A DNA stretch of 64,000 nt from Acidobacteriota bacterium (lineage in GTDB: Bacteria; Acidobacteriota; UBA890; WLXD01): assembly GCA_965248695.1 (NCBI GenBank), contig CBDFKD010000002.1:5568001-5632000 (forward strand). The letters are read 5' to 3'. A model generated the notes under the pieces. It had not been told where the DNA came from, searched no databases, and was given only the letters and a program-made list of their open reading frames with translations. The position numbers and the translations under genes are program-made. Each line of letters starts with the position of its first letter. The stretch's first letter is position 1. Shown here one piece after another: positions 20,438 to 59,754 of this stretch.

Positions 20438-20513
20438 CAGGCCGTCGGCGCGCCCGACAAACGTGACAACGTGGTGTACGGAGTAGGGGCGATGACCGAG
20501 CAAGGGGAAACGG

Positions 20514-34168: not shown

Positions 34169-34232
34169 TCCACTTCCTCCTGGGGGGAGATGCCCGTCAT
34201 CCAAACGGACAATGCTTATGTGAACGTTTACG

Positions 34233-34249
34233 TGCAAAAAACGTGCCGA
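34233..34249 (-). promoter_or_regulatory. sigma54 (-24/-12) promoter of the TonB receptor gene
   Basis: Minus strand TCGGCACGTTTTTTGCA versus consensus YTGGCACG-N4-TTGCW; exact GG-N10-GC spacing; about 65 bp upstream of the ATG. Confidence 0.7.
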
Positions 34250-34459
34250 TCGCCCTGTTCGCGGCGTCTCGGTCGGCACCGCGCTTGTGCAAACTCAATA
34301 TCTCCGGTCGCCAGACCCACTCTTACTGGGCGATTCCGTCTAATATCCCGAGCGGTCATTAATTGACTGGAAGGCGAACACAGCACGAAACGGGAGGCGC
34401 TCTGCGGGTCCGCAGCGCCTCCGGGCGTCACTGAATCCAACTAGTTGGGTCACTCGATC

Positions 34460-37696: not shown

Positions 37697-37737
37697 TGTC
37701 CTGTTAAACCGTAGGCAGGCTCCATGCCGGTAAACTT

Positions 37738-38790: not shown

Positions 38791-39101
38791 GAATATCCTC
38801 TCGACTGGTCTGTCATGGTCATTTTGTCCACTTGGCGATCCCGAACGCCGACGATCGGCGTTCGTCGCACCGCATCGCGCCAGGCTCACCGCTCGAATCA
38901 GATCTCCTGACAGGACGCTAGCGCCTGAGCACGCTACAGCGACCGGAGCGACGATTCCAGCGACCGTGTCTTCGTCTTCCGGTTCTGCCCGCCGTTCGTC
39001 TTGAGCAGCCCCACGCATCAGTGGTTGAATCCAGGCGTCCCGGTACCGACCCCGCCAAGCACGTGACTCGACGGGCGGATCTGGGGAACCCTAGGGTACA
39101 G

Positions 39102-40151: not shown

Positions 40152-40224
40152 CCGGGCGGTAAGCGGAGGGGTCACCAAGGCCCGTCAAGCGGCCCGACAT
40201 CACTACCAACGTGGGAGCGGAGCC

Positions 40225-41593: not shown

Positions 41594-42865
41594 ATGACGA
41601 TGAGCGACGATCTACACGGCCGGGATCGAACAGAACGACGACCACCTAGGGAACAGCCGACGATCGGCCGAGCAGGCCTGGCGCTGGCGGCGGTGCTGGC
41701 GGCGTTCCTGCTGGTGGCAGTGTCTGTGTTGAGCACGAGCGCAACCGTCAACGCGGCGCCGCGCCCAACCATCCAGGCGCAACAGGCCGCTGACCCCGCT
41801 ACCCTCGACACCGCGTCGATGAGCAACGATGAGTTCGCTACGCTGCTGGCGTCAGCGGAGCTCGGACCCTACGCGCGTGAGGACGCTCTCGCCGATGCGT
41901 TCTCGCTAGAGCGCGCCGCCGCCTTCCTCGATCGAGTTGCCGTGGCATGGGGTGAGAAGTACGGCTGCGTCACCTGCCATACGAACGGTTTGTATCTCGC
42001 GGCACCGCCCGAGATCTTCGCCGAGCGCCGTGCCTTCGAGATAGCACACGATCAGGCTGCTCGCTTCGTGCGCTCCTGGCGCGCCAACGACGTGCCTGGC
42101 AACGATGCGCCAGCCCCCCCAGACGTGACGGACGTCGTTGGCACGTCTGCGTTTCTGGCCATCAACGAGGCCCAGTCGGGTGCAAGCGAGCTCAGCGACA
42201 TCGCCGCGGAGGCGCTCGACCACGCCTGGTCGCTACAGGACGAAGGGGGCCACTGGACTGGGTTTGTATCCAACTGGCCGCCGTTCTACGATCGCCACTG
42301 GCCCGTCACGCTGATGGCGATCGCTACCGGCATGGCTCCGGGCGACTACCCCAGCACCGATGCTGCTGTACAGGGGATGCGCAGGATTCGTGCCTACATC
42401 GCCGCCAATCCGCCCGAGTTCGCCCACAACCGCGGCATGCTGCTATGGGCCGGCAGTGTCAACGAGGGGCTGATCAGCGACGCCGATCGCCAACTTTGGA
42501 TCGACGAGCTTCTCGGTCTGCAGCGTGATGACGGTGGCTGGGCCGCGGGACAGCTCGGCGTATGGCGTATGCGCATGGGACTCGAATCCGATCCCCCGGT
42601 GACTGTCGAAAGTGATGGATACGGCACCGGCTTCGTCATGTACGTTCTGCGACAGGCCGGAGTCCCGGCGTCGCACGCGGCGATCCAACGCGGCGTCGGC
42701 TGGTTGAAGACGAACCAGCGTGCCGGTGGCTACTGGTGGACCCAGTCCATACGCAATAGCTTCACAACCTCGAACTTTCTGACGCACGCCGGCACGATGT
42801 TCGCGGTCAAGGCGCTTGCGGCCACGGCGGTCGAAGCGGGCGGTGTCGCCGAAGCGGAGCGTTGA
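41594..42865 (+). CDS. exported prenyltransferase / squalene-cyclase-repeat protein with CxxCH (paralog 1)
   Basis: N-terminal hydrophobic signal; CVTCH; QW-like repeats LQDEGGHW, LQRDDGGW, NQRAGGYW; SDGYGTG. Confidence 0.8.
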   Translation: MTMSDDLHGRDRTERRPPREQPTIGRAGLALAAVLAAFLLVAVSVLSTSATVNAAPRPTIQAQQAADPATLDTASMSNDEFATLLASAELGPYAREDALADAFSLERAAAFLDRVAVAWGEKYGCVTCHTNGLYLAAPPEIFAERRAFEIAHDQAARFVRSWRANDVPGNDAPAPPDVTDVVGTSAFLAINEAQSGASELSDIAAEALDHAWSLQDEGGHWTGFVSNWPPFYDRHWPVTLMAIATGMAPGDYPSTDAAVQGMRRIRAYIAANPPEFAHNRGMLLWAGSVNEGLISDADRQLWIDELLGLQRDDGGWAAGQLGVWRMRMGLESDPPVTVESDGYGTGFVMYVLRQAGVPASHAAIQRGVGWLKTNQRAGGYWWTQSIRNSFTTSNFLTHAGTMFAVKALAATAVEAGGVAEAER

Positions 42866-43002: not shown

Positions 43003-44289
43003 ATGGGCGACGATCGACACGGCGGGGATCGGACCGAACTACGACTACCTGGCGACGAGCCCACGAAGGTCCGAGCAGGCCTGGCGCTGGCGGGAGTGCT
43101 AGCGACGGTCCTGCTGGTAGCGGTTTCCGTGCTGAGCACGACCGCGACCGTCGACGCAGCGTCGCATCCGCCGATCCAGGCGCAGCAGGCCGCCGACGTT
43201 GCGACCCCCGACACCGAGTCGATGAGCAACGAGGAGCTCGCAACGCTGCTGGCGTCGGCGGAGCTAGGCCCCTACGCGCGTGAGGACGCTCTCGCCGACA
43301 CGTTCTCGATGGAGCGCGCCGCCAGCTTCCTCGATCGGGTTGCCGTGACCTGGGGTGAGAAGTACGGCTGCGTCACCTGCCATACGAACGGTTTGTATCT
43401 CACCGCGCCGCCCGAGATCTTCGGCGAGCGCCGTGCTTTCGAGATCACACACAGCCAGGCTGCCCGTTTCGTGCGCTCCTGGCGCGCCGACGACGTGCCT
43501 GAACACGATGCAAAACACCTACAGCAGACGTACTCCCCACACGTGGTGAACATCATTGGCACGTCGGCGTTCTTGGCCATCAACGAGGCCCAGTCGGGTG
43601 CAAGCGAGCTCAGCGACATCGCCGCGGAGGCGCTCGACCACGCCTGGTCGCTACAGGACGAAGGCGGCCATTGGGCCGATTGGACGGTAAACAACTGGCC
43701 ACCGTTCGAGTCCGATTTTCACTTCCCCGTCACGCTGATGGCGATCGCCACCGGCATGGCTCCGGGCGACTACCCCAGCACCGATGCTGCTGTACAGGGG
43801 ATGCGCAGGATTCGCGCCCACATCGCCGCCAATCCGCCCGAGTTCGCCCACAACCGCGGCATGCTGCTATGGGCCGGCAGTGTCAACGAGGGGCTGATCA
43901 GCGACGCCGATCGCCAACTTTGGATCGACGAGCTTCTCGGTCTGCAGCGTGACGACGGTGGTTGGGCTTCCGGCGGGCTGGGCGTGTGGCGCATGCGCAA
44001 GGGTCTTCCTTCCGATCCCCCGGTCACCGTCGAGAGCGACGGCTACGGCACCGGCTTCGTCATCTATGTCCTGCGACAGGCGGGCGTGCCGGCTTCGAAC
44101 GCGGCAATTCAGCGCGGTGTCGGCTGGTTGAAGACGAACCAGCGCGCCGGCGGGTACTGGTGGACCCAGTCCATACGCAACAGCTTCACAACCTCGAACT
44201 ACCTTACTCACGCCGGCACGACGTTCGCGCTCAAAGCGCTCGCGGCCACTGCGCTCGAAACGGGGGGCGTCGCCGATCTCGAGCGTTGA
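43003..44289 (+). CDS. exported prenyltransferase / squalene-cyclase-repeat protein with CxxCH (paralog 2)
   Basis: Tandem near-copy of 41594-42865 with the same motifs. Confidence 0.8.
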   Translation: MGDDRHGGDRTELRLPGDEPTKVRAGLALAGVLATVLLVAVSVLSTTATVDAASHPPIQAQQAADVATPDTESMSNEELATLLASAELGPYAREDALADTFSMERAASFLDRVAVTWGEKYGCVTCHTNGLYLTAPPEIFGERRAFEITHSQAARFVRSWRADDVPEHDAKHLQQTYSPHVVNIIGTSAFLAINEAQSGASELSDIAAEALDHAWSLQDEGGHWADWTVNNWPPFESDFHFPVTLMAIATGMAPGDYPSTDAAVQGMRRIRAHIAANPPEFAHNRGMLLWAGSVNEGLISDADRQLWIDELLGLQRDDGGWASGGLGVWRMRKGLPSDPPVTVESDGYGTGFVIYVLRQAGVPASNAAIQRGVGWLKTNQRAGGYWWTQSIRNSFTTSNYLTHAGTTFALKALAATALETGGVADLER

Positions 44290-44319: not shown

Positions 44320-45654
44320 ATGAGCAAGAAGGCGGAAGGAACGACGTCGACTCGGCGTGACTTGGCGCGCAGCGCCGTTGTCGCGTACACCGCCGCCGCC
44401 ATGGGGGTTCCCCGGAACCTGCTTGCCAGGGCGATCCGAGAGCCGGCCCAGATGGGCGGTGGGGGTTCGGGGCCCGCTGGGTTTCGAAGAAACACAGTAG
44501 ACGCCGAGTACTATACGGACGAAGCGCGCTACCTGTTCGATGAGCGCCTGGTGGCCGACCACTTCTGGCAAATGGTCGACCACGAGAGCAGGATCCCTGA
44601 TGCGGGCGACTTCTTCGTGTTCGAGTTCGGTCGCACCGAGAGCATCCTGATCGTGCGCGGGCGGGACAACGCAGTCCGCGGCTTCTACAACGTCTGCCGC
44701 CACCGCGGCTCGCGCCTGTGTCGTCACGATGCGGATCCGATCCCCGGGGATCCGCGCCTGTCAGTCAAGCAGCTCAGCCAGTCGGGCAGCTCACCGGTGT
44801 TCCGCTGCCCGTACCACGCCTGGACGTACGACACCGAAGGCAGCCTGATCTATGCCTACGGCATGCAGGAGGACTTCGACCCGGCCGACAACGGTCTGAT
44901 CCCCTGCCACCTTCGCGTGGCAGACGGCTTCATCTTCGTGAACCTGTCGCCCGAGCCGGAGGCGCCGGAGTTCGAGTCAGCGATCGAGCCCTTCCGCACC
45001 GATGTGGGCGGACCCCACGGCACCGCCCAGCTGAAGGTCGGCGAACGGGTCTACGTTCCGATGCACGCCAACTGGAAGCTGGCGCTGGAGAACTTCCTGG
45101 AGTGCTACCACTGCGGTCCGTCGCACGACTACCTCTGCCACGTGTACCCGGGCTCTGACCTCACAACCCCTTCGGAGAGACAAGGAAAGGGTGGCCTGCT
45201 CAACGGATTCGTCAGCGGCACGATGGACGGCAAGGCGGCGGCACCGTTGCTGCCCGCCTTCGAGGGCACCGATGCGAGGATGACGTCACGCACGTCGACC
45301 GAAACGGCCACCGGTTGGTCGACCGGCTACTGGCTCGGGTACGACGATTACGTCTTCGCGGTGAGGTTCACTCCTCGCGATATCAAGCTCACCGACGTGG
45401 AGTGCATCTGGCTGGTGCATCCGGATGCGAAGCGCGGCGTGGACTACGACGCCGAGAAGCTCAAGGAGGTGTGGCTCGTCACGCTGCTGGAGGACATCTG
45501 GTTGTGCGAGAACAACCACGACGGAATGCGCTCCGGCGCCTACCGACCCGGGCGCTACGCCACCCATGAGATCGGCAGCGTCTTGCCGGCCAATTTCATC
45601 CACTGGTACATGAACGCCGTGGCGGGTGACGTCGACCGCGTGATGCCGTACTAA
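44320..45654 (+). CDS. Rieske non-heme iron oxygenase alpha subunit with Tat-like signal (R1)
   Basis: STRRDLA + h-region; NVCRHRGS...CPYHAWTY; NWKLALENFLECYHCGPSH; EDIWLCE. Confidence 0.9.
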   Translation: MSKKAEGTTSTRRDLARSAVVAYTAAAMGVPRNLLARAIREPAQMGGGGSGPAGFRRNTVDAEYYTDEARYLFDERLVADHFWQMVDHESRIPDAGDFFVFEFGRTESILIVRGRDNAVRGFYNVCRHRGSRLCRHDADPIPGDPRLSVKQLSQSGSSPVFRCPYHAWTYDTEGSLIYAYGMQEDFDPADNGLIPCHLRVADGFIFVNLSPEPEAPEFESAIEPFRTDVGGPHGTAQLKVGERVYVPMHANWKLALENFLECYHCGPSHDYLCHVYPGSDLTTPSERQGKGGLLNGFVSGTMDGKAAAPLLPAFEGTDARMTSRTSTETATGWSTGYWLGYDDYVFAVRFTPRDIKLTDVECIWLVHPDAKRGVDYDAEKLKEVWLVTLLEDIWLCENNHDGMRSGAYRPGRYATHEIGSVLPANFIHWYMNAVAGDVDRVMPY

Positions 45655-45688
45655 CGCGGCGAGCGAGCTCCGCCTACCCGAGGTGCAC

Positions 45689-47623
45689 ATGAGCGATCGG
45701 GATCTTGATTTGGGGATGCGCCGGGAGATCACCCGTCGCGATTTCGTCTCCGGTGTCAGCGTAGCGCTGAGCGGTAGCCTCGCATTGCCGTGGGCGCAGA
45801 CCCACGCCCTGGCGGCCCCCGGGGCGCCGGCAGCACCCCTGCAGACGACGGCGGCCGCGTATCCACCGATCCGGACCGGTATGCGTGGCAGTCACGAAGG
45901 CTCCTACGAGGTTGCGCACCAGCTTCGAGATGGCATGCGCTGGGACGACCCGGAGGAGACCGGTGAGTTCTACGACCTGATCGTGGTCGGGGGCGGCATC
46001 AGTGGCCTGGCGGCGGCGTGGTTTTACCGAGAAGCGGTTCCCGAGGCCCGCATCCTGATCCTCGACAACCACGACGACTTCGGCGGTCACGCCAAGCGCA
46101 ACGAGTTCTGGCACGAAGGTCGGATGTTGCTATCGCACGGCGGCACCATCGAGATTGTCAACTTGAACCGCTACGGCAGCGCCGCCAAGCGCCTGATTCA
46201 TGCCCTCGGGATCGACGTACGGCGCTACCCGGAGTTCTTGAATCGCGAGTTGTATTCCTCACTCGGGTTGCGGAGCTCGGTGTTCTTCGACCGCGAGACC
46301 TTCGGCAGCGATCGCTTGTTGGTGGGCGAGGGTGAACCCTCCTGGCGCGAGTTTCTGGCGCGCGCGCCCCTGTCGGAGGCCGCCCGCGAACAGATCGTGC
46401 GATTGCACGAAACGAAGGTCGATTACCTGCCGGAGATGACGCTGCCGGAGAAGCGCGACCACCTCAGGCAAACCAGCTATGAGGATTTTCTCCTCGATGC
46501 CGCCAAGATCAGCCCGGAGGCGGTCTCCTTTCTCGAAACGTCCAACGGCTGGGCGATCGGTCTCGATGCCATCTCTGCCTGGGTAGGCGTCGGTAGCGGA
46601 TGGGCCGGCACCGAGGGGCTCGGGTTCGGTGAGGACGACAGCTGGGGAGCTGAAACCGCCGAGGAGCGACTCTACTTCCAGTTTCCCGATGGCAACTCGT
46701 CGATCGCGCGCCTGCTCGTTCGGTCGCTGGTGCCGGGGGTAGCGCCGGGCAGCACGATGGAGGACATCGTCGCCGCCGAATTCGACTACGGGCAACTCGA
46801 CCGCGAGGACTCTGCCGCCCGCATTCGTCTCGACAGCACGGCAGTAAGGGTGCGCCACCTGGGAGACCCTCAGACCGCCGCCGAGGTCGAAGTCACCTAC
46901 GTCCGCGGCGGGCGTGCCGCCCGCGTCCGCGCCGGCCAGTGTGTCCTTGCCTGCTACAACGCCGTCATCCCTCACATCTGCGACGAGCTTCCGAACCGCC
47001 AAAAGCAAGCGCTGTCGCAGGCGTTGAAGGCGCCCCTCATCTACACGAATGTTCTGATCCGCAACTGGACCGCCTTCGCCAAGCTCGGCGTGGACGCCGT
47101 GCGCTGCCCGGGGAGCTACTTCGACGACATCAACCTGAAGCCGCCGATCAGCATCGGAGGGTACCGACACGCTGAAACGCCCGACGAGCCCACCGTGGTG
47201 CGCTTGTGGCGAGCCCCCTTGGTGCCGGAAGCTCGTGGGCTTTCCGCGGCCGAGCAGTGGAAGGCCGGCCGCCGGGGTCTATTGACGACGACGTTCGAGA
47301 CCTTCGAGCGCAAGATCAGGGACCAACTCGGCCGGATACTGTCGGCCGGGGGCTTCGATCCGGCGCGCGACATCGAGGCCATTACCGTGAACCGCTGGCC
47401 ACACGGCTACGCCTACGGCCACGATCCGGAGACCGGCCAGGTGGCGTGGAGGCTCGACGAGCTACCGCCCGAGCGTCGTCCGTGGCTTGCCGCCCGACGG
47501 CCCTTCGGCCGCATCGCGATCGCCAACTCGGACGCGATGGCGGACGCCATGACCGAGGGTGCGATCGGCGCGGCGCATCTGGCGGTCGAGGCGCTCGTCG
47601 CGCTTGAGACGACGCCACGATGA
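45689..47623 (+). CDS. Tat-exported spermidine dehydrogenase (SpdH)-like flavoprotein (S1)
   Basis: TRRDFVS signal; YPP..TGMRGSH, VGGGISGL, DNHDDFGGHAKRNEF, FPDGN, ITVNRWPHGY, IANSD. Confidence 0.87.
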   Translation: MSDRDLDLGMRREITRRDFVSGVSVALSGSLALPWAQTHALAAPGAPAAPLQTTAAAYPPIRTGMRGSHEGSYEVAHQLRDGMRWDDPEETGEFYDLIVVGGGISGLAAAWFYREAVPEARILILDNHDDFGGHAKRNEFWHEGRMLLSHGGTIEIVNLNRYGSAAKRLIHALGIDVRRYPEFLNRELYSSLGLRSSVFFDRETFGSDRLLVGEGEPSWREFLARAPLSEAAREQIVRLHETKVDYLPEMTLPEKRDHLRQTSYEDFLLDAAKISPEAVSFLETSNGWAIGLDAISAWVGVGSGWAGTEGLGFGEDDSWGAETAEERLYFQFPDGNSSIARLLVRSLVPGVAPGSTMEDIVAAEFDYGQLDREDSAARIRLDSTAVRVRHLGDPQTAAEVEVTYVRGGRAARVRAGQCVLACYNAVIPHICDELPNRQKQALSQALKAPLIYTNVLIRNWTAFAKLGVDAVRCPGSYFDDINLKPPISIGGYRHAETPDEPTVVRLWRAPLVPEARGLSAAEQWKAGRRGLLTTTFETFERKIRDQLGRILSAGGFDPARDIEAITVNRWPHGYAYGHDPETGQVAWRLDELPPERRPWLAARRPFGRIAIANSDAMADAMTEGAIGAAHLAVEALVALETTPR

Positions 47624-47696
47624 AACATTCGTGAGTTCCGGGCCGCCGGCCCTCACTCCGTTGCGCCGAACTCTCGTACCATCCGCCGACCCGCGC

Positions 47697-49034
47697 TCAG
47701 ATGCCGCTGAGGTAATCGAGCTCGAGACGGGCCGTGCTATTGCCGAAGCTCTCTACTGGAACACCCAGCTTGTCGAGCAGCGCGACATGCAGGTTCGCGA
47801 GCGGCGTGCCCTCGCCGTAGCGAATGTACTGTCCACCCTCGAGCTGGCCGGCGCCCCCACCGGCTAGCACGATCGGCAGATCGTTGACGATATGGCCGTT
47901 GCCGTCGTTCATGCCGGCGCCGAACTTGATGACCATCTGATCCAGCAACGACCCGTCGCCGTCCGGCGTCGCGGCCAGCTTCTCCAGCAGATGGCTGAAC
48001 AGCCTCGCATGGTAGCGGTTGATCTGGGCACACTTGTCCATCTTCTCGGGGTCATTGCGGTGGTGCGAGATCGGGTGGTGCGAGTCGGGTACACCGATCT
48101 CGGGGTAGGTGCGGCCGTTGAACTCCCTTCCCATCATGAACGTGCAGACGCGAGTGATGTCGGCCTGGTAAGCAATTACCTGCAGGTCGAACATCAACTT
48201 CGCATGCTCCGCGTAGTCGCCTGGAACGCCGGCTGGTCGGTCGAACGCCGGCAGCTCGACGTTCTGCTCGACCGCTCGCTGAATGCGCTGCTCCACCGCG
48301 CGCACGCTCTCCAAGTATCCAGTCAGTCGGGATTGGTCGCTCGGACCGACCTTGTTCTTGAGCAGCGCGACCTCAGCGAGCACCGAATCGAGAATGCTGG
48401 TCTTGCGGAGTGCGCTGGCGCGGCGCGCCGCCGGATCGGTGGTGTCTTCGCCGAACAAGCGCTCGAAGACGGCCGCAGGATCGGTCTCCATCGGCAGCGG
48501 CGAAGTCGGTCCGGCCCAGGAGATCGTTCCCGTGTAGATACAGCTTCCATCGTCGCAAGTCGCCGCGGCGTCCACCGTATCCAGAGCGAGCTCGAGCGAT
48601 GGCAGCTGTGTTGTCCGACCCAGTTCCCGGGCCGCCAGCTGGTCCATCGAGATGCCGGCTTTGAGCGCACGGCTGGGGTGCACGTTGGTCAGGAACTTCG
48701 TGCTCGCCCTCGCGTGAACCGCGGAGGGGGCGCCGGGTGGCCTGATCGGGTCGCTGTCGAGCCCGCCCAACACCTTCAGTCGATCGCGAAACGGCTCCAG
48801 CGGTTTCAAGGCGTACGAAAACTCGAAGTCGGAACCCACCTCGGCGGGGAACCAACGATCCGGGATCACGCCGTTCGGCACATAGACGGCGCCAAAGCGT
48901 TTTATCGCTTTGGCCGGCGTCTGACTGAGAGCGGTGGCCGCAGGCACCATCGCGTCCAGCAGCGGAAGTGCGACGGCAGCGCCCAACCCGCGTAGTACCG
49001 TGCGCCGGGGAATGGCCTTCTTGGCGATGATCAT
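47697..49034 (-). CDS. DUF1552 (HXXSHH) family protein with twin-arginine-like N-terminus
   Basis: IPRRTVLRGLGAAVALPLLDAM, YVPNG, SMDQ, HHPISHH; start placed at ATG 49034. Confidence 0.88.
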   Translation of the reverse strand: MIIAKKAIPRRTVLRGLGAAVALPLLDAMVPAATALSQTPAKAIKRFGAVYVPNGVIPDRWFPAEVGSDFEFSYALKPLEPFRDRLKVLGGLDSDPIRPPGAPSAVHARASTKFLTNVHPSRALKAGISMDQLAARELGRTTQLPSLELALDTVDAAATCDDGSCIYTGTISWAGPTSPLPMETDPAAVFERLFGEDTTDPAARRASALRKTSILDSVLAEVALLKNKVGPSDQSRLTGYLESVRAVEQRIQRAVEQNVELPAFDRPAGVPGDYAEHAKLMFDLQVIAYQADITRVCTFMMGREFNGRTYPEIGVPDSHHPISHHRNDPEKMDKCAQINRYHARLFSHLLEKLAATPDGDGSLLDQMVIKFGAGMNDGNGHIVNDLPIVLAGGGAGQLEGGQYIRYGEGTPLANLHVALLDKLGVPVESFGNSTARLELDYLSGI

Positions 49035-49343
49035 GACGCAGTGCTCTCCATCTGAAGCGGCGCTCTCCCCATCTGGAATGGCTCGCTGGCGACGATTCCC
49101 TGGATGATAGCCGACCACCGGCAATCGGTGGCGGCGGCGCGCCGCAGAATCCTACGAATGGAGGGATTGTCGTAGTACTCGAGTCCTCGGCCGAACGGGT
49201 CAGATCGCCTGGATGCTCGACGTAGGCCTCAAGAGTCCGCTCTTCACGTTGTCGTAGCTGGATCTCGGGGGTAGAGTTCACCTCCTCGTTGGTTCACGGA
49301 GCGCGCTGAACGGGAAACGTCGGGCGCCGGGTAAGAGCAGACA

Positions 49344-51401
49344 ATGCGCCGAATAAGGCTCGCTAGCTCCTTTGTGGCAATCACGCTGTTGGCGGGGCTT
49401 TCGCACGCCGGCGGGCAGCTCTCCCAGACCGAGAGCCAGATCCTGGGCGCGCTGGACAAAGACAGGACCCTCGCCCTCACCCGCCGCCTCTCGGAAGAGC
49501 TGGTCAAGAACGACTCCGGTGGGGGCGCCGGCTCGGCCATCGCCGGCAGCGCCGATGAACGCCTCTTGGCCGGCTTCATCGAGGCCGAAATGACCCGGAT
49601 GGGTCTGGACGTGCGGCGCGAGAGCTTTCCCGTGCACGCCTACGACTACGGCAAAGTACTGCTGCGGGCAGCGGGCAGACAGCTGGCGGCGATTACCCAA
49701 CATTCCGGCGGTGGCACCTGGGGCACGGCCGAGCGCGTGCCGTACACCAAGGGCAACACGTCTGCTGGACGGGTCTTGCGAGCGGCCTTGCTCGATGCCG
49801 GAGAAGGCTGGGTTAATGACTACGCTGATCTGAGCGAGGTGCCCGGCAACGCCGTGCTCGTGCGCCGCGGAGACGACTGGCTCAACAGCCAGGTCGTGAT
49901 GGAGGCGGCGGAACAGGGAGCCTCCGCGATCTTGCTCTACGACTACGACAGCGGTGCGGAGGCCCCACAGGACTCGATCCAGCAGATGAGCATCGTCTAC
50001 CGCGACCCGATCCCGACCGTAACGATCAGCAACAGCGATGCGGCATGGCTCAAGGAGCGCCTCGCCGAGGGCGAGGTGATGATCGAGCTGGAAAACCGGG
50101 TCGACGTCGAATACGGCTCCTCAGAGAACGTCATCGGCATGATCCGGGGCCGGGAGTATCCAGACGAATGGATCATCGTCTCGGCGCACCACGACCGCTG
50201 GTGGCAGGGGGCCCAGGACGACAGCGTCGGGGTGGCCGTCATGCTGGAGTTGGCGCGCGTGATCTCGGAGGGCTACCGGCCGCGGCGCAGCTTCCTCTTC
50301 ATTGGCTTCGGCAGCGAAGAGGTCGGAGGGCTGTGGACCCAGTTCGACTGGCTGGCGGGCTCGCATGCGTTCATCCGGGCACACCCCGAGATCACCTCGC
50401 GGTTGGCCTATGCCTTCAACCTGGACATCGCTGGATGGACGGGGCGCGAGGGCCGCGTGAACGCCACCCCCGACCAGGTTGCCTTCCAACGCGAACTGCT
50501 GGCGGACCTCGGCCTCGACGAGCGGGTGACGGTGCGTGAGCACGTCAGTACCGGCGTCGATGCCTGGTCACTCGGAGGTGTTCGGGGCGGAGCGGTGGCA
50601 ACCCTGAGCTGGACGGGTGACGTCCCCTACAGCCGCTACTACCACACGCAGCACGATGTCTATCGAGCCGAGGACTATGCCAACCTGGAGCACGATCTGC
50701 GACACGGGGCACTCGGCGTGTTGCGGATGGACCAGGCTGTCGTCCTGCCCGTCGGCTTTTCGGAGATCGCCGGCTGGGTCGCCAAAGAGCTCGAGAGGCT
50801 CGAGCAGACGCTCTCGGGTCTCTCGGCGCCGACCGACCTGCTTCGCGACGCCGGACAGGCGGCAGAGCGCCTGCGCGTGCAGGGCGACAGGTTGACCGCG
50901 TCGTCTGCGTCTTTGGCGGATGGAGATCACGCGGCCATGGTCAACGCCCTCTTGATGAACACCCGGCATGATCTCGTTCCCTGGCTTCTGAACACGGAAG
51001 CGCGTCTGCGCGGGAGCGGGCACGCGGACGATGTCGTCGCCCTCCAGAGGGCGCGTATCGCTGCCGCGGATGGAGATGCCGAGGCTGCAGCTACTGCGCT
51101 CGAAGAAGTCAACACGATGCTGTGGGGCAAGCGGGTCTCGTCCGGGACCTATCGCGCCGAGAGGCTGCTCTCCTACGAGCCAACCGGTTGGATGTGGGAG
51201 TTCGACCAGCACCCGCGTCCGGTCAGCCCCGAGCTCTACACCATCTACTCGAAGCTCCGGGCAGGGCGCGGCGCCGATTCGGTCGCCGGGATCGGCAGGC
51301 TCGAGGCGCAGGCGGAGGGCTCGCTGCGGGAGGCCTTGTTCATCGTCAGCGGCAAGCTCAGGGACGCCGCGAGGGCGCTCGCCGACACTCCTCTACCGTA
51401 G
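49344..51401 (+). CDS. secreted M28 family metallopeptidase with PA domain
   Basis: Signal peptide; SAHHD, GAQDD, GSEE, NLD and YYHT zinc-ligand motifs. Confidence 0.87.
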   Translation: MRRIRLASSFVAITLLAGLSHAGGQLSQTESQILGALDKDRTLALTRRLSEELVKNDSGGGAGSAIAGSADERLLAGFIEAEMTRMGLDVRRESFPVHAYDYGKVLLRAAGRQLAAITQHSGGGTWGTAERVPYTKGNTSAGRVLRAALLDAGEGWVNDYADLSEVPGNAVLVRRGDDWLNSQVVMEAAEQGASAILLYDYDSGAEAPQDSIQQMSIVYRDPIPTVTISNSDAAWLKERLAEGEVMIELENRVDVEYGSSENVIGMIRGREYPDEWIIVSAHHDRWWQGAQDDSVGVAVMLELARVISEGYRPRRSFLFIGFGSEEVGGLWTQFDWLAGSHAFIRAHPEITSRLAYAFNLDIAGWTGREGRVNATPDQVAFQRELLADLGLDERVTVREHVSTGVDAWSLGGVRGGAVATLSWTGDVPYSRYYHTQHDVYRAEDYANLEHDLRHGALGVLRMDQAVVLPVGFSEIAGWVAKELERLEQTLSGLSAPTDLLRDAGQAAERLRVQGDRLTASSASLADGDHAAMVNALLMNTRHDLVPWLLNTEARLRGSGHADDVVALQRARIAAADGDAEAAATALEEVNTMLWGKRVSSGTYRAERLLSYEPTGWMWEFDQHPRPVSPELYTIYSKLRAGRGADSVAGIGRLEAQAEGSLREALFIVSGKLRDAARALADTPLP

Positions 51402-51567
51402 GCTCGGGTGCCTCTAATCGGAAGAGTCGGTCGGCTCCCTACTGTTAACCGGCGCCCGGTCGTGATACGCCTGAGCCAGACTCCCGACGGGGACGAAGCC
51501 CGATTCGGAGAACGTGGTCGGGAGCTCTTGCACCGCGCCACTTCAGCCCGTTGATCGAGGAGAGTCC

Positions 51568-52953
51568 ATGAGCGCAAGGAAAGGCAAGCGCAAGAAAGAC
51601 GGCATGAGCCGCCGCGACTTCGCCAAGTCCTCGGTTGCCGCTGGTGCCGCTGCCGTCACGCTTCCGAAAGAGCTACGTGCCGAGACGGCCTCGGGGAAGA
51701 CAAGACAGAGCTTGCGGGATGGCTGGACAGCGGGCACCACCATTCCGGCCGAGTATTACGTCGACGAGAGGCACTACGTCGCAGATGAGCGTTTCCTCGC
51801 CGAGAACATCTGGCTCTACGTCGACCACGAAAGCCGCATTCCGAACGTCGGCGACTACTTCGTGTTCGAGATGGGGCGCTCGGAGAGCGTCATCATCGTA
51901 CGCGGCAACGACGACGGCCAGATCCGGGCCTTTCACAATGTTTGCCGCCACCGTGGCTCGCGGCTCTGCCGACACGATGCCGATTCGATCCCCGGCGACC
52001 CGCGGCTGTCAGTCAAGCAGCTGGGGCAGAGCGGCAACTCGCCCGTGTTTCGCTGCCCTTACCACGCCTGGACCTATGACGTGGACGGCAACCTGATCTA
52101 CGCCTACGGCATGCAAGAGGACTTCGACCCAGCGGACAACGGCTTGAACCCGTGTCACCTGCGAACGTCGGAGGGCAGCATCTTCGTCAACCTGTCGCAG
52201 CAGGACGAGCCACCGGACTTCGAGTCCGCCGTCTCGGCACAACAGCTCATGGGCCGGTACTACGGACACGCGGGCCTGAAGATCGCCGCCCGGGAAAGCC
52301 ACCTGGTCCATGCCAACTGGAAGCTGGTGTTGGAAAACTTCTCCGAGTGCTATCACTGCGGACCAACCCACAAGGGGTTGACCACCACCCACAACTACGA
52401 CTACGACGCCACGCCCGAGCAGATGGCGGTGCGCAACGCGGCGGTGGGCGAATGGCTGACGCCGGCGGGCAGGGTACGGCCCGAGGGTCCCGAGCAGGGG
52501 CCGCGGCTGACAGGGAACCTCAACCCCGGCTTCGTCACGGGGTCCAGCGACGGCAAGTCGGTGGCACCGTTGCTTCCAACCATCGAGCAGCCAACTCACG
52601 GCACCAACGAGGCATACACGGGTTACTACACCGGCTACTGGCAATCCTATGACGACTACGTCGTCGGGCTCCGGTTCACGCCTCGAGACGTCGCGCTCAC
52701 CGACGCTGAGCTCATCTGGCTGGTGCACCCGGACGCCGTGGAGGGAAGAGACTACGATCTGGACACCCTCAAGGCCTTCTGGCAGATCATCGTCCAAGAG
52801 GATATCTGGGTGATCGGCAACAACCACAGGGGCGTGCTCTCCGGCGCCTATCGTTCAGGTCCGTACTCTACCCATGAGAATTCCACGGCCGATTTCATCA
52901 AGTGGTACATGGACGAGGTCGTGACGGCGGGAGGGCGGCCAGACCTGGCATAG
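51568..52953 (+). CDS. Rieske non-heme iron oxygenase alpha subunit with Tat signal (R2)
   Basis: MSRRDFAKSSVAAGAAAVTLPKELRA; CRH...CPYH; NWKLVLENFSECYHCGPTH; QEDIW. Confidence 0.9.
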   Translation: MSARKGKRKKDGMSRRDFAKSSVAAGAAAVTLPKELRAETASGKTRQSLRDGWTAGTTIPAEYYVDERHYVADERFLAENIWLYVDHESRIPNVGDYFVFEMGRSESVIIVRGNDDGQIRAFHNVCRHRGSRLCRHDADSIPGDPRLSVKQLGQSGNSPVFRCPYHAWTYDVDGNLIYAYGMQEDFDPADNGLNPCHLRTSEGSIFVNLSQQDEPPDFESAVSAQQLMGRYYGHAGLKIAARESHLVHANWKLVLENFSECYHCGPTHKGLTTTHNYDYDATPEQMAVRNAAVGEWLTPAGRVRPEGPEQGPRLTGNLNPGFVTGSSDGKSVAPLLPTIEQPTHGTNEAYTGYYTGYWQSYDDYVVGLRFTPRDVALTDAELIWLVHPDAVEGRDYDLDTLKAFWQIIVQEDIWVIGNNHRGVLSGAYRSGPYSTHENSTADFIKWYMDEVVTAGGRPDLA

Positions 52954-53005
52954 GTCGCTTCCCCACAATTCAGAGTGCATCGGCCCAGAGAAGTTGGAGG
53001 GCGGG

Positions 53006-54328
53006 ATGAGCAAGAACGAGGAAGTCACCACGTCGACCCGGCGTGACCTGGCGCGCAGCGCAGTCGCTGCGTATACCGCCGCCGCCCTCGGGCTGCCGCG
53101 GAACCTGTTTGCCCGTGCGATTCCGGATACAGGCCAGATGGGGGGCGGAGAATCCGGCCCCGCGGGGTGGGTACGAGACACGATCGACGCCGAGTACTAC
53201 GTCGACGAAGCGCGCTGGCAGGTCGACGAGCGCCTGGTGGCCGACCACTTCTGGCAGATGGTCGACCACGTGAGCAGGATCCCCGAGCCGGGCGACTTCT
53301 TCGTGTTCGAGTTCGGTCGCTCCGAGTCCATCTTGATCGTGCGCGGGCGAGACAACGAAGTCCGCGGCTTCTACAACGTCTGCCGCCACCGCGGCTCGCG
53401 CCTGTGCCGTCACGATGCCGATCCGATTCCCGAGGACCCGCGCCTGTCGGTCAAGCAGCTGGGCCAGTCAGGTAGCTCGCCGGTGTTCCGCTGCCCGTAC
53501 CACGCCTGGACCTACGACACCGAGGGCAGCCTGATCTACGCCTACGGCATGCAGGACGACTTCGACCCGGCCGAAAACGGCCTGATCCCCTGCCACCTTC
53601 GTGTGGCCGAGGGCTTCATCTTCGTGAACCTGTCGCGCGAGGCGGAGCCGCCGGAGTTCGAGACGGCGATCGAGCCGTTCCGCGAGGTGGGTCAGTCACA
53701 CGGCATGGCCGACCTGAAGGTGGCCGAGCGCGTCTTCGTGCCGTGCCGGTCCAACTGGAAGCTGGCGCTCGAGAACTTCCTGGAGTGCTACCACTGTGGG
53801 CCGTCGCACGACTACCTGTGCCACGTGTTCCCGAACATCGATCTCTCGCTACCGGAATCTCAAAGACCTGGGAGCGGGATGCCCGCGAGCTTCGTCAGCG
53901 CCACGATGGACGGCAAGCCGGCGGCACCGTTGCTGCCCGCCTTCGAGCGCAGAACTGGCCGGAAGATGGGAAGCGACGTGGCGACGGGTTGGTCGACCGG
54001 TTACTGGTCTCCCAACGAGGACTACGTCTTTGCAGTCCGATTCACCCCCCGCGATGTGGACCTCACCGACGTGGAGTGCACCTGGCTCGTGCACCCGGAC
54101 GCGAAGCGCGGCGTGGACTACGACCCGGAGAGGCTGAAGGAAGTCTGGTACGTCACGCTGCTGGAGGACATCTGGTTGTGCGAGAACAACCACATCGGGA
54201 TCCGCTCAGGCGCCTACCGCCCCGGACGCTACGCCACCCACGAGATCGGCCGGATCCTGCCGGCCAACTTCATGCACTGGTACGTGAAGGCCGTGGCGGG
54301 TGACGTCGGCCGAGTGATGCCTTACTGA
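53006..54328 (+). CDS. Rieske non-heme iron oxygenase alpha subunit with Tat-like signal (R3)
   Basis: STRRDLA; same Rieske and mononuclear-Fe motifs as R1. Confidence 0.9.
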   Translation: MSKNEEVTTSTRRDLARSAVAAYTAAALGLPRNLFARAIPDTGQMGGGESGPAGWVRDTIDAEYYVDEARWQVDERLVADHFWQMVDHVSRIPEPGDFFVFEFGRSESILIVRGRDNEVRGFYNVCRHRGSRLCRHDADPIPEDPRLSVKQLGQSGSSPVFRCPYHAWTYDTEGSLIYAYGMQDDFDPAENGLIPCHLRVAEGFIFVNLSREAEPPEFETAIEPFREVGQSHGMADLKVAERVFVPCRSNWKLALENFLECYHCGPSHDYLCHVFPNIDLSLPESQRPGSGMPASFVSATMDGKPAAPLLPAFERRTGRKMGSDVATGWSTGYWSPNEDYVFAVRFTPRDVDLTDVECTWLVHPDAKRGVDYDPERLKEVWYVTLLEDIWLCENNHIGIRSGAYRPGRYATHEIGRILPANFMHWYVKAVAGDVGRVMPY

Positions 54329-54345
54329 CGAGCTTGGAGGATGGG

Positions 54346-55728
54346 ATGAGCAAGAAAGAGGAAGGCAACAAATCGACTCGGCGTGACTTGGCGCGTAGCG
54401 CTGTTGTCGGCTACACCGCCGCCGCCCTCGGGCTGCCAGCTCACCTGCTTGGCAGGGAAGTTGCGGAAGTGGGCCAGATGGCCAGCGGGGAATCGGGCGT
54501 CGCTGGGTCGCTCGGAGCCACGATTGACGCCGAGTACTACACGGACGCAGAGCGCTGGGAGTTCGATGAGCGCCTGGTGGCCGACCACTTCTGGCAAATG
54601 GTCGACCACGAGAGCAGGATCCCGAATACAGGCGACTTCTTCGTGTTCGAGTTCGGTCGCAGCGAGAGCATCCTGATCGTGCGCGGGCGGGACAACGAAG
54701 TCCGCGGCTTCTATAACGTGTGCCGCCACCGCGGCTCGCGCCTGTGTCGTCACGATGCGGATGCGATCCCCCAGGATCCACGCCTGTCGGTCAAGCAGCT
54801 CAGCCAGTCGGGCAGCTCGCCGGTGTTCCGCTGCCCCTACCACGCCTGGACGTACGACACCGAAGGCAGCCTGATCTATGCCTACGGCATGCAGGAGGAC
54901 TTCGACCCGGCGGACAACGGTTTGATCCCCTGCCACCTGCGCATCGCGGACGGCATGATCTTCGTGAACCTGTCGCGAGAGCCGGAACCGCCAGAGTTCG
55001 AGACAGCAGTCGAGCCCTTCCGCCGCGATGTGGGCAGACCCCACGGCACCGCCGACTTGAAGGTCGGCGAGCGGGTCTACGTTGCGATGCACGCCAACTG
55101 GAAGCTGGCGCTGGAGAACTTCCTGGAGTGCTACCACTGCGGTCCGTCGCACGACTACCTGTGCTACGTGTACCCGGGCTCCGACTTCACCACGGAGTCC
55201 GAGAAACAGGGGAAGGGTGGGCTGCTCAACGGATTCGTCACCGGCACGATGGACGGCAAGGCGGCGGCACCGTTGCTGCCCGCCTTTGAGGGCACCGACG
55301 CGAGGACAACGTCACGCACGTCGACCGAGACGACGTCGGGTTGGTCGACCGGCTACTGGCTCGGGTACGACGATCACGTCTTCACGGTGAGGTTCACCCC
55401 CCGTGACGTCGATCTCACCGACGTGGAGTGCACCTGGCTGGTGCATCCGGATGCGAAGCGCGGCGTCGATTACGACCCCGAGAGGCTAAAGGAAGTGTGG
55501 CTCGTCACGCTGCTGGAGGACATCTGGTTGTGCGAGAACAACCACGCCGGCATTCGCTCAGGCGCCTACCAGCCTGGCCGCTACGCCACTCATGAGCGCA
55601 GCCCGTCCAGATTCATACAGTGGTATATGGCCGCCGTCGCGGGTGACATCGGGCCGGCGTGGAACCCACGGCGGTATGAGCGTCCGACTGCCCGCCTCGA
55701 GGGTCCGGACGATGCACTCTTGACCTGA
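54346..55728 (+). CDS. Rieske non-heme iron oxygenase alpha subunit with Tat-like signal (R4)
   Basis: STRRDLA; same motifs as R1; distinct C-terminal tail. Confidence 0.9.
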   Translation: MSKKEEGNKSTRRDLARSAVVGYTAAALGLPAHLLGREVAEVGQMASGESGVAGSLGATIDAEYYTDAERWEFDERLVADHFWQMVDHESRIPNTGDFFVFEFGRSESILIVRGRDNEVRGFYNVCRHRGSRLCRHDADAIPQDPRLSVKQLSQSGSSPVFRCPYHAWTYDTEGSLIYAYGMQEDFDPADNGLIPCHLRIADGMIFVNLSREPEPPEFETAVEPFRRDVGRPHGTADLKVGERVYVAMHANWKLALENFLECYHCGPSHDYLCYVYPGSDFTTESEKQGKGGLLNGFVTGTMDGKAAAPLLPAFEGTDARTTSRTSTETTSGWSTGYWLGYDDHVFTVRFTPRDVDLTDVECTWLVHPDAKRGVDYDPERLKEVWLVTLLEDIWLCENNHAGIRSGAYQPGRYATHERSPSRFIQWYMAAVAGDIGPAWNPRRYERPTARLEGPDDALLT

Positions 55729-55790: not shown

Positions 55791-57725
55791 ATGCACATGA
55801 GAGATCGGGATCTTGATCTGGGAATGCACCGGGAGATCACCCGGCGTGATTTCGTCTCCGGTGTCAGCGTAGCGCTGAGCGGCAGCCTCGCATTGCCGTG
55901 GGCGCAGACGGGCGCCCTGGCTAACCCCACGGCTCCGGCACAAACCCCACAGTCCATGGCGGCCGCGTATCCACCGATCCGGACCGGTATGCGCGGCAGT
56001 CATGAAGGCTCCTACGAGGTCGCTCACCAGCTTCGAGATGGCATGCGCTGGGACAACCCGGAGGAGACGGGTGAGCTCTACGACCTGATCGTGGTCGGTG
56101 GCGGCATCAGCGGCCTCGCCTCGGCATGGTTTTATCGCGAAGCCGTCCCCGGGGCGCGCATCCTGATCCTCGATAACCACGACGACTTCGGCGGTCATGC
56201 CAAGCGCAACGAGTTCTGGCACGAAGACCAGATGGAGCTGTCACATGGCGGCACCATCTTCATCTCCAACTTGCATCGGTACAGTGCAGCAGCCCAGCGC
56301 CTGATCCGCGGGATCGGCATCGATGTGAACCGCTACTCCGAGTTCCTCGACGAGGATCTGTACAGCTCGCTCGGCATGGGCGGGTCGGTCTTCTTCGACC
56401 GCGAGACGTTCGGCACCGATCGTCTGCTGTTGGGTGAAGGCGAGCCATCTTGGCGCCAGTTTCTGGCGCACGCACCCTTGTCCGAGGCGGCGCGTGAGGA
56501 CCTCGTACGACTCCACGAATCGGACGTCGATTATCTGGCGCACCTCAGCTTGGAGGAGAAGGTCGAGTACCTTCAGCACACGAGCTACGAGGACTTTCTC
56601 TTGCAGGTGGTCAAGATCAGCCCGGAGGCGGTCTCCTTCCTCCGGACGTCCAACGGCTGGGCGATCGGCATCGACGCCATCTCCGCCTGGAGTGGCGCTG
56701 GCAGCCGGCCAGGAACCACCGGGCTCGGTTTGGGTCGCGACGATGCGGCCGCCGAACCGCGCGAGGAGCGCGCGTTCTTCCAGTTCCCGGATGGCAACTC
56801 TTCCGTCGCGCGCCTGCTCGTCCGGTCGCTGATCCCCGACGTCGCTCCCGGCACCACGATGGAGGATGTCGTCGCTGCACGATTCGATTACGGCAAGCTC
56901 GATCGGGAAGACTCGCCCGTCCGCGTGCGCCTGGAGAGCACAGCGGTGCGAGTAGGCCACCGGGGCGATCCGCGCACTGCCGAAGAAGTCGAGGTCACCT
57001 ACGTCCGCCACGGCCGCGCCCAGCGAGCTCGCGCCGGCCGCTGTGTGCTTGCCTGCTACAACGCGGTCATTCCTCATATTTGCGACGAGCTGCCGGACAC
57101 GCAAGAGCACGCGCTATCGAATGCTCTCAAGGCGCCCCTTATCTACACCAACGTCCTGATCCGCAACTGGACCGCCTTCCAGAAGCTCGGCACGCACGAT
57201 GTGCGCTGCCCGGGCAGTTATTTCGACGACGTCAATCTGACACCGCCGATCAGCATTGGAGGCTACCGACACGCAAGCACTCCCGACGAGCCCACCGTGG
57301 TGCGCATGTGGCGCGCCCCGCTGGTGCCCGAGGCCCGCGGGCAGTCCGCGGCGGAGCAATGGAAAGCCGCCCGCCAGAGTCTGGTGATGACGACGTTCGA
57401 GACCTTCGAGCGCAAGATCAGGGATCAGCTCGGCCGCATACTCTCCACCGGAGGCTTCGACCCGGCGCGCGACATCGAGGCGATCACCGTGAACCGCTGG
57501 CCACACGGCTATGCCTACGGCCACGATCTGGAGACCGGTCAGATCGCATGGAGGCTCGATGAGGTACCGCCCGAGCGCTCTTCGTGGATCGTCGCCCGCC
57601 AGCGTTTCGGCCGCATCGGGATCGCCAACTCGGACGCGATGGCCGACGCCATGACCGAAGGTGCGATCGGCGCGGCGCATCTGGCGGTCGAGGCGCTCAT
57701 TGCCCCCGAGACAGCGCCATTGTGA
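55791..57725 (+). CDS. Tat-exported spermidine dehydrogenase (SpdH)-like flavoprotein (S2)
   Basis: Paralog of 45689-47623 with the same motifs. Confidence 0.87.
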   Translation: MHMRDRDLDLGMHREITRRDFVSGVSVALSGSLALPWAQTGALANPTAPAQTPQSMAAAYPPIRTGMRGSHEGSYEVAHQLRDGMRWDNPEETGELYDLIVVGGGISGLASAWFYREAVPGARILILDNHDDFGGHAKRNEFWHEDQMELSHGGTIFISNLHRYSAAAQRLIRGIGIDVNRYSEFLDEDLYSSLGMGGSVFFDRETFGTDRLLLGEGEPSWRQFLAHAPLSEAAREDLVRLHESDVDYLAHLSLEEKVEYLQHTSYEDFLLQVVKISPEAVSFLRTSNGWAIGIDAISAWSGAGSRPGTTGLGLGRDDAAAEPREERAFFQFPDGNSSVARLLVRSLIPDVAPGTTMEDVVAARFDYGKLDREDSPVRVRLESTAVRVGHRGDPRTAEEVEVTYVRHGRAQRARAGRCVLACYNAVIPHICDELPDTQEHALSNALKAPLIYTNVLIRNWTAFQKLGTHDVRCPGSYFDDVNLTPPISIGGYRHASTPDEPTVVRMWRAPLVPEARGQSAAEQWKAARQSLVMTTFETFERKIRDQLGRILSTGGFDPARDIEAITVNRWPHGYAYGHDLETGQIAWRLDEVPPERSSWIVARQRFGRIGIANSDAMADAMTEGAIGAAHLAVEALIAPETAPL

Positions 57726-59413: not shown

Positions 59414-59754
59414 GCTACGTCACTCATGGCATTCGACCGTTCTACGGCGACTCTTCCACCCGGGATTTCCGAGAGATGACCCGAGTCGCGTTCTTGGCTT
59501 GGTCTATCAGGGACGCTCTTGACTCAACCACTGACCGCCGGAAGCTTCAAGGGATCGTCGTCCGTCCTTGCATCGATCTGTCCCAGCCAGGGGTTGCTTC
59601 GTCGACGTAGACAAGCTCGTCGTAGCCATCGCTCACGCGGTGGATCCCTTGAGGAGCCTGACGGTCAGTGATTGACTCCTGGCGGTTCCCGATACTGACC
59701 AAGCCAAGACCGTGACCCGACCAGGGTCTCCCAGGAAATCCCGGGAGGTGAACA

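Follow-up and report, generated by a model that had tools for sequence, protein, structure and literature searches.

How could a Rieske non-haem-iron oxygenase work outside the cytoplasm, and what would supply its electrons there? This question is raised by a stretch of 64,000 nucleotides from an Acidobacteriota bacterium (GenBank assembly GCA_965248695.1, contig CBDFKD010000002.1, positions 5,568,001 to 5,632,000; referred to as the window), in which four genes, R1 to R4, encode Rieske oxygenase alpha subunits that begin with leaders of the twin-arginine translocation (Tat) type. To our knowledge, every characterised Rieske oxygenase is located in the cytoplasm or a plastid and receives its electrons from NAD(P)H via a reductase, in some cases with a ferredoxin in between. 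We favour, with moderate confidence, the reading that R1 to R4 belong to a clade of periplasmic Rieske oxygenases to which electrons are supplied by haem proteins. Export of the clade is predicted from sequence with high confidence, and for haem proteins as the electron supply we have a slight leaning.

Gene structure and catalytic ligands of R1 to R4

R1 (44320-45654, 444 aa), R2 (51568-52953, 461 aa), R3 (53006-54328, 440 aa), and R4 (54346-55728, 460 aa) are all located on the forward strand. A preliminary description, made from the DNA sequence of the window, had placed four Rieske oxygenases here, and the open reading frames (ORFs) and their Pfam matches confirmed them. Each of the four proteins matched Rieske (PF00355; expectation value (E) 1e-11 to 1.5e-13) and Ring_hydroxyl_A (PF00848; E 1e-24 to 5e-30) above the cut-off. 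The ATG start of each gene was preceded at a distance of 4-5 nt by a GGAGG-type Shine-Dalgarno sequence (TTGGAGGAYGGGATG for R1, R3, and R4, and GAGGAGAGTCCATG for R2), and the twin-arginine (RR) motif was located downstream of each start. The starts therefore lie upstream of the RR motifs, on which the preliminary description had depended.

The catalytic residues were evaluated in an alignment of 26 clade members with 38-85% identity to R1. The Rieske ligands C126, H128, C163, and H166 (CxH...CxxH) were invariant, as were the mononuclear-iron residues H264 and H269 of NWKLALENFLECYHCGPSH and the preceding E261. D392 of EDIW, which we take to be the iron carboxylate (the mononuclear-iron ligands being assigned by motif position, as known from solved relatives), was kept in at least 90% of the rows. 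The Rieske and mononuclear-iron ligands previously reported for the four proteins were thus conserved in the alignment. By these comparisons, R1 to R4 are complete Stc2/GbcA-like Rieske non-haem-iron oxygenase alpha subunits, and their oxygenase activity, dependent on O2 and on two external electrons, is predicted from the family and the ligands.

The best PDB matches of R1 to R4 were 3n0q and the stachydrine demethylase Stc2 (3vca and 4qup), with E ~5e-53 over residues ~51-450, and CntA (6y8j) matched the N-terminal half (E 2.4e-28). The alignments to Stc2 and 3n0q start only at residues 51-54 of the queries, so that ~50 residues at the N-terminus represent an extension. GbcA (NF058607) was the best NCBIfam model (E 3e-65 to 4e-70); R1 and R2 scored 220.3 and 236.5 bits, respectively, against an equivalog cut-off of 670. 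Because these scores are far below the cut-off, R1 to R4 are not GbcA itself, but are related to the alpha-only enzymes that oxidise amines. The AlphaFold model of R1 (mean predicted local distance difference test (pLDDT) 67.7, predicted template modelling score (pTM) 0.72) was of low confidence at residues 1-59 and at an insertion between the Rieske ligand motifs, and all that it indicates is a leader predicted to be no part of the R1 fold.

Twin-arginine leaders of R1 to R4 and their homologues

The leader of R1 comprises residues 1-38 (44320-44433, forward strand), with an n-region, TRRDLAR, the h-region SAVVAYTAAAMGV, and the c-region PRNLLARA. The leaders of R1 and R3 share the pattern STRRDLARSAV, followed by LLARA in R1 and LFARA in R3, and residues 1-38 of R2 read MSRRDFAKSSVAAGAAAVTLPKELRA. 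In R4, the leader reads STRRDLARSAVVGYTAAALGLPAHLLGRE, in which RR is present and the AxA site is absent. These sequences agree with the earlier account of RR leaders in all four proteins and of cleavage-like ends in R1 to R3.

RR (R12 and R13 in R1) was invariant in the 26-sequence alignment. It was then located in 122 homologues, namely the 120 best matches (R2 and R4 among them) together with R1 and R3, and was found upstream of the catalytic core in 113 of them, with a leader consensus near VSRRDFAKTSVAAGAAAVALPxxLRAE. The nine sequences without RR were short gene calls; six start in a remnant of the h- or c-region, and three immediately ahead of the conserved TIPAEYY. Across the clade, a helix-breaking Pro was conserved together with RR and the h-region, and the leader was followed by a variable linker, rich in Ala and Pro, which could not be aligned to Stc2.

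In the NCBI-named public records P0010, P0056, and P0083 ('aromatic ring-hydroxylating dioxygenase subunit alpha'), the gene calls begin inside or after the leader. Since some public gene calls start within or past it, the leader is invisible to annotation-based surveys.

Rieske-loop insertion and distribution of the clade

The leader co-occurs with 17-29 extra residues inserted between the CxH and CxxH motifs of the Rieske site. In R1, this clade-specific insertion is located approximately at 44722-44784 (forward strand), between CxH and CxxH, and corresponds to a gap in the Stc2 alignment. The CxH-CxxH spacing is 37 residues in R1 and 37-49 in the clade, compared to ~20 in cytoplasmic relatives.

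The ligand spacing was surveyed in 133 full-length sequences, comprising 25 members of the clade and 108 representatives from a search of 1.84 billion cluster representatives; only sequences of 360-470 aa in which the ligand motifs could be detected had been kept. A Tat-like leader and a spacing of at least 30 were found together in 26 sequences, and 98 had neither. Six sequences had a spacing of at least 30 without a Tat-like leader, two of which were truncated calls inside the clade, and three had a Tat-like leader with a spacing of less than 30. A stricter Tat-like rule flagged only these three of the 101 short-spacing sequences; their RR pairs lie, as judged by eye, within a conserved helix, and all three fell outside the clade in the tree. 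The retention of the leader in 113 of 122 homologues thus exceeds what chance would give.

The tree was built with FastTree from 84 rows, for which every second row with neither feature had been omitted. The 26 sequences with both features and the two truncated calls formed one clade of 28 (Shimodaira-Hasegawa-like support 100, branch 0.71). As the combination of leader and long spacing defines one well-supported clade, the leader and the insertion would have arisen together. Judged by these alignments, R1 to R4 represent a distinct alpha-only clade derived from the Stc2/GbcA/CntA group.

The clade was searched for in 201 sampled genomes of the phylum (E 1e-90 or better), with up to eight candidates scored per genome and hence no copy numbers. 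It was found in five genomes, which were all four genomes of the genus of the window, including that of the window itself, and one genome of another family (G038). At the same threshold, it was not found in the five other sampled genomes of the family to which the genus belongs.

Oxygenase copies, Tat machinery, and reductases in the genome

The genome that contains the window (two contigs, 96.4% complete, ~5.8-5.9 Mb) harbored 18 oxygenase genes of the clade in 12 regions. Sixteen copies were intact and had the leader, one was split by TGA and kept the leader, and one, the 5' end of which was replaced, was without the RR region. The pattern of a Tat substrate (RR, then a moderately hydrophobic and uncharged h-region of at least 12 residues, near the N-terminus) was found in 17 of the 18 copies. 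The two damaged copies are located at C2:2817746-2819149 and C2:3037322-3038890, one of them being RR-less with transposase-like ORFs on its 5' side and the other having an in-frame TGA. A few ordinary oxygenase-like matches, leaderless and with short ligand spacing, were also present. TatC gave two matches (215 and 161 bits).

Pfam scans of 47 ORFs in the window (14 and 33 in two scans, several being left without a family) identified no NAD(P)H reductase, ferredoxin, or beta subunit. The preliminary description had emphasized this absence, which was reproduced; by itself, it carries little weight. As a control, ORFs of up to 480 aa within 3 kb of 27 non-Tat oxygenases with full flanks were examined, 44 longer ORFs being left out. 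No ferredoxin and no FNR-type reductase was among these 101 ORFs, one of which matched Pyr_redox_2. Because the 27 non-Tat relatives lack a nearby reductase too, its absence is uninformative alone. A pattern screen for FNR-Fer2 fusions in 161 loci also gave no match and, being without a positive control, was discounted.

Unlike the local absence, the absence of an FNR-type reductase from the genome is informative. The genome-wide search that had been proposed returned no match to FAD_binding_6 (PF00970), and the single match to NAD_binding_1 (PF00175) was PyrK, adjoining PyrD. The beta subunit family (Ring_hydroxyl_B, PF00866) had no match in the genome and none in the window scans. The Fer2 matches of the genome were, by eye, mostly small subunits of molybdoenzymes, together with one plant-type ferredoxin, and none of them was fused to an FNR module. 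The single Tat-signalled Fer2 ORF also resembled, by eye, a molybdoenzyme small subunit, and no exported ferredoxin was found among the Fer2 and Rieske matches of the genome. A small Rieske ORF at C2:2371215-2371820, adjoining a pair of an oxygenase gene and an SpdH-like gene (described below), was considered as a ferredoxin and rejected, as it appeared by eye to be a leaderless oxygenase-like fragment.

Haem-protein genes adjoining the oxygenase genes

The statement that no reductase was in sight holds for the families scanned; however, an electron source is arguably in sight, since R1 and R4 are each followed by an SpdH-like gene and R1 is preceded by genes for two CxxCH proteins. The SpdH-like genes encode FAD/haem-b dehydrogenases with Tat leaders. 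One is directly 3' of R1 (45713-47623, forward strand, alternative start 45683, leader ITRRDFVSG), and the other is directly 3' of R4 (55821-57725, forward strand, alternative start 55791). The proteins are 636-646 aa long, and the similarity of the SpdH-like neighbour to PaSpDH, the spermidine dehydrogenase of Pseudomonas aeruginosa (PDB 7d9f/7d9i), reached E 1.4e-141. The haem-b ligands His54 and His562 of PaSpDH were conserved, and the corresponding H69 and H564 were invariant in 14 sequences. Their leaders had no match to Pfam TAT_signal, yet they align with the N-terminus of PaSpDH. A 2025 article on PaSpDH gives His54 and His562 as the haem-b ligands and describes an electron flow from FAD to the surface-exposed haem b, with direct electron transfer to an electrode; it also refers to cytochrome c as an acceptor in earlier work, reduced in vitro (PMC12564564).

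The genome had ~27 SpdH-like genes, nearly all with an RR leader. Seven of them were within 250 bp of an oxygenase gene of the clade, so that seven of the 18 oxygenases were paired, and four of these seven SpdH-like genes were immediately downstream on the same strand. The expansion of SpdH-like genes in the genus is large; a first look at the three other genomes gave 46-73 candidates each.

The neighbourhoods were further compared between 26 external loci of the Tat clade (11 from genome_contigs, all Acidobacteriota, 14 from metagenome_contigs, and one from G038) and 135 non-Tat loci, the collection loci being the best 80 of each of two scans. An SpdH-like gene was present anywhere in the locus in 10 of the 26 Tat-clade loci and in two of the 135 non-Tat loci. 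A gene for a small monohaem cytochrome c (PF13442, with CxxCH and a TMP/MPP motif) abutted the oxygenase gene in 11 Tat-clade loci (eight on the same strand and three convergent) and was found nowhere in the 135 non-Tat loci. Most of the same-strand copies had a lipobox, and in several the start codon was inside the 3' end of the oxygenase gene. In G038, the sole surveyed oxygenase genome without an SpdH-like match, the cytochrome c gene overlapped the stop codon of the oxygenase gene. In the genome of the window, the best homologue of this cytochrome c starts 2 nt past the end of an SpdH-like gene, and the oxygenase, SpdH-like protein, and cytochrome c are thereby linked.

When the ORFs within 4 kb of the oxygenase genes were clustered, SpdH-like proteins (10 of 38 sources) and the cytochrome c (9 of 38) were the top two clusters, followed by amidohydrolases (4 of 38). 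Counting a third type, a 426-aa CxxCH protein, a haem-protein gene was present within 4 kb in 17 of the 26 external loci. The association of the oxygenase genes with genes for periplasmic haem proteins is strong and specific to the clade. The 426-aa protein bears a signal and is encoded at L066:8310-9590 (also in L008 and L096), directly 5' of a Tat oxygenase gene. It weakly matched (E 1.2e-4, under the cut-off) the domain at the C-terminus of copper type II (PHM/DBH-like) monooxygenases, and it could represent a further periplasmic monooxygenase that a haem c module would feed.

Proposed electron supply and alternative explanations

In the mechanism that we propose, the oxygenase would fold and receive its [2Fe-2S] cluster in the cytoplasm, and the Tat pathway would export the folded and cluster-loaded protein through its twin-arginine leader. 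The oxygenase would act in the periplasm, either free or tethered via an uncleaved leader. As NAD(P)H and an FNR-type reductase would be unavailable there, the Rieske cluster would be fed by periplasmic haem proteins. The candidate donors are the small monohaem cytochrome c, which is often lipid-anchored, and the SpdH-like amine dehydrogenase, in which electrons would pass from FAD to the surface haem b. The insertion beside the Rieske cluster may remodel the surface for partner docking. The substrates are probably amines, because the neighbours are an amine oxidase, an amidohydrolase, and SpdH-like proteins. A periplasmic class with an electron source other than NAD(P)H, as first suggested in the preliminary description, is thus supported computationally by the gene starts, the conservation of the leaders, the two TatC proteins, the lack of an FNR-type reductase, and the haem-protein neighbours.

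The observations that weigh against this reading concern the redox potentials, the gene neighbourhoods, and the leaders, together with the scope of the reductase search. Oxygenase Rieske clusters typically have potentials of ~-150 mV, and those of PaSpDH haem b and of His/Met cytochromes c are usually much higher. Electron transfer from haem to the Rieske cluster would therefore be uphill unless the cluster of the clade were tuned upward, of which there was no sign in the sequence. Haem supply thus predicts an unusually high-potential cluster. A self-contained and NAD(P)H-free system, in which the SpdH-like enzyme would oxidise an amine and pass two electrons through haem b to the oxygenase, directly or via the lipoprotein cytochrome c, with a high-potential Rieske cluster and docking remodelled by the insertion, is a tentative extension that we regard as rather doubtful. 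If it were true, the cost of O2 activation outside the cytoplasm would be borne by the substrate pool or by the pool of respiratory cytochrome c, and 18 oxygenases with ~27 dehydrogenases would represent a combinatorial toolkit that breaks C-N bonds of compounds that are never imported.

A different donor is the alternative that survives best, and it is nevertheless unlikely. The oxygenases would be exported, their haem neighbours would belong to a shared periplasmic amine catabolism or respiratory chain, and the electrons would come from elsewhere, for example from a membrane protein linked to quinol or from an exported iron-sulfur protein that went unrecognised. Such a donor would suit the uneven neighbourhoods, as neither an SpdH-like gene nor a CxxCH ORF was within 3 kb of seven of the 18 oxygenases of the genome, and no haem-protein gene was within 4 kb in nine of the 26 external loci (three of them on truncated contigs). 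It would also suit the distribution of the SpdH-like genes, which were present in 26 of the 201 genomes, compared to five for the oxygenase, and thus in 22 surveyed genomes without it. SpdH-like genes do not depend on the oxygenase, and the two could be adjacent because they act in one amine pathway, without electrons passing between them. Furthermore, the window is rich in other exported enzymes that process amines and amides, and, in L007 and L008, genes for pyrroloquinoline quinone (PQQ) dehydrogenases, which also use cytochrome c, are found close to that for the cytochrome c. However, L090 has no PQQ enzyme nearby, the cytochrome c gene starts within or just past the 3' end of the oxygenase gene in the eight same-strand loci, and this cytochrome c was present in none of the 135 non-Tat loci. 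The exported iron-sulfur donor, moreover, has no counterpart among the Fer2 and Rieske matches examined.

It is still less likely that the RR leader is non-exporting, being vestigial or mediating membrane association on the cytoplasmic side, and that the oxygenases work in the cytoplasm with a generic reductase, such as one of the glutathione-reductase type with a small Rieske ferredoxin. The genome encodes three small cytoplasmic ORFs similar to Rieske ferredoxins, and the genome-wide search that found no FNR-type reductase of the GbcAB/CntAB kind did not extend to glutathione-reductase-type reductases; adjacent reductase genes are absent from the cytoplasmic relatives too. The support for the leaders from hidden Markov models (HMMs) is weak for three of the four (R1, R3, and R4). 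With the Pfam TAT_signal HMM (PF10518), R2 scored 20.6 bits (E 4e-4), under the cut-off of 22.7, and R1, R3, and R4 had no match; the support of TIGR01409 for the leaders of R1 to R4 was also weak, and the AxA site was absent from the leaders of R4 and many homologues. Tat leaders of known type in the same window, however, score no better, with 23.4 bits for an amidohydrolase, 19.6 bits for an amine oxidase (DAO), and no match for the SpdH-like proteins. A non-exporting leader also fits less well with RR, the h-region, and the helix-breaking Pro being conserved despite 38-85% identity, with the variable Ala/Pro-rich linker that separates the leader from the part alignable to Stc2, and with partner genes that encode periplasmic proteins with Sec, lipoprotein, or Tat signals.

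That R1 to R4 are exported non-oxygenases passing electrons to cytochrome c, like the Rieske subunits of bc complexes and of arsenite oxidase, is hardly credible, as only the adjacency of cytochrome c and the precedent of Tat-exported, cytochrome c-reducing Rieske subunits speak for it, whereas the mononuclear-iron site is conserved in the Ring_hydroxyl_A domain (two His and Glu invariant, Asp in at least 90%) and there is no dehydrogenase cofactor domain.

If the favoured reading of exported oxygenases coupled to cytochrome c or a flavocytochrome is correct, a major enzyme class would extend to a compartment and to a class of redox partners that are new for it. This would raise the question of up to what potential a Rieske cluster can still support O2 activation, and would offer a possible physiological electron acceptor for the orphan SpdH family. 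Periplasmic oxidative C-N cleavage would then be a nutritional strategy in an Acidobacteriota lineage in which both gene families are amplified.

Other genes of the window

The two CxxCH proteins encoded 5' of R1 are cyc2 (43003-44289, forward strand), which is membrane-anchored, has one CxxCH haem-c motif and a squalene-cyclase-like domain, and ends 30 nt before R1, and its likewise membrane-anchored paralogue cyc1 (41594-42865, forward strand), also with one CxxCH and a squalene-cyclase-like domain. The squalene-hopene-cyclase-like domain scored under the Pfam cut-off in both, and their look-alikes belong to unnamed or 'putative squalene-hopene cyclase' clusters of Planctomycetota, Verrucomicrobiota, and Acidobacteriota. 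It is possible that cyc2 is a locus-specific redox partner. As general partners, cyc1 and cyc2 were rejected, since the genome has four paralogues and only the two in the window are near an oxygenase gene. Upstream of R1 is also a gene for a Tat-signalled FAD amine oxidase of the N-methyltryptophan/sarcosine oxidase type (40222-41478, forward strand; TAT_signal 19.6 bits).

A respiratory cluster at 17871-25416 encodes a bc-type Rieske subunit with an RR/transmembrane leader (17871-18422), cytochrome b (18193-19305), a multihaem cytochrome c of 967 aa (20514-23414), and a CtaA-type haem A synthase (24460-25416). From this cluster, the periplasm could be supplied with reduced cytochrome c.

Between the two oxygenase groups are genes for a DUF1552 (HXXSHH) protein with the RR-containing leader RRTVLRGLGAAVALPLL (47697-49124, reverse strand) and an exported M28 peptidase (49344-51401). 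In one external locus (L091), a DUF1592/1588/1585 PSCyt-type protein adjoins the oxygenase. The flanks at 36044-39018, 57752-61566, and 61563-63737 encode exported catabolic enzymes, among them a formamidase/acetamidase, a PQQ alcohol dehydrogenase whose C-terminal domain is a cytochrome c, and three Amidohydro_3 proteins, of which one scores 23.4 bits with TAT_signal. Farther upstream, a gene for an outer-membrane protein resembling TonB-dependent receptors (31277-34279) adjoins an insertion sequence (IS)-type integrase gene (rve, rve_3, and HTH_21; 34543-35568, reverse strand).

Comparison with known systems

No Tat-signalled or periplasmic Rieske oxygenase, and no pairing of SpdH with a Rieske oxygenase or a lipoprotein cytochrome c, was found described in the open full-text literature, the coverage of which mostly ends short of subscription journals. 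Among proteins of solved structure, Stc2 and the uncharacterised oxygenase 3n0q are the closest. They share with the clade the alpha-only organisation, the Rieske CxH/CxxH, the ExxH...H iron motif, and the C-terminal Asp. Stc2 is cytoplasmic, and both are leaderless with a ligand spacing of ~20, whereas the clade has ~40-90 residues of leader and linker and a spacing of 37-49.

Enzymes of the Stc2/GbcA/CntA group typically catalyze the oxidative N-demethylation or hydroxylation of amines. The chemistry of the clade is probably related to that of GbcA and CntA, with an oxidative attack next to the amine nitrogen. The glycine betaine monooxygenase GbcA/GbcB and the carnitine monooxygenase CntA/CntB depend on an FNR-type reductase with FAD, NAD, and [2Fe-2S] modules; in contrast, the genome of the window has no FAD_binding_6, and PyrK accounts for its sole NAD_binding_1.

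PaSpDH (PDB 7d9f-7d9j) resembles the SpdH-like neighbours in the FAD-binding motif, the haem-b histidines, and the RRDF leader. The homologues differ in forming a set of ~27 paralogues in one genome, some of which are paired with a Rieske oxygenase or a cytochrome c.

Tat export of a Rieske cluster has a precedent in the Rieske subunit of the bc1/b6f complexes and in the small subunit of arsenite oxidase, in which the Tat pathway translocates a protein that has received its cluster in the cytoplasm, the leader sometimes being kept as an anchor; the window has its own example at 17871-18422. These are electron-transfer subunits and, unlike R1 to R4, have no mononuclear-iron oxygenase domain. 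Cytochrome c peroxidase and the nitrite and nitrous oxide reductases are periplasmic enzymes fed by the respiratory cytochrome c pool instead of NAD(P)H; they belong to unrelated families, and none of them is a Rieske non-haem-iron oxygenase. Compared to these systems, the catalytic family of R1 to R4 is known, while their compartment and the class of their redox partners appear to be new.

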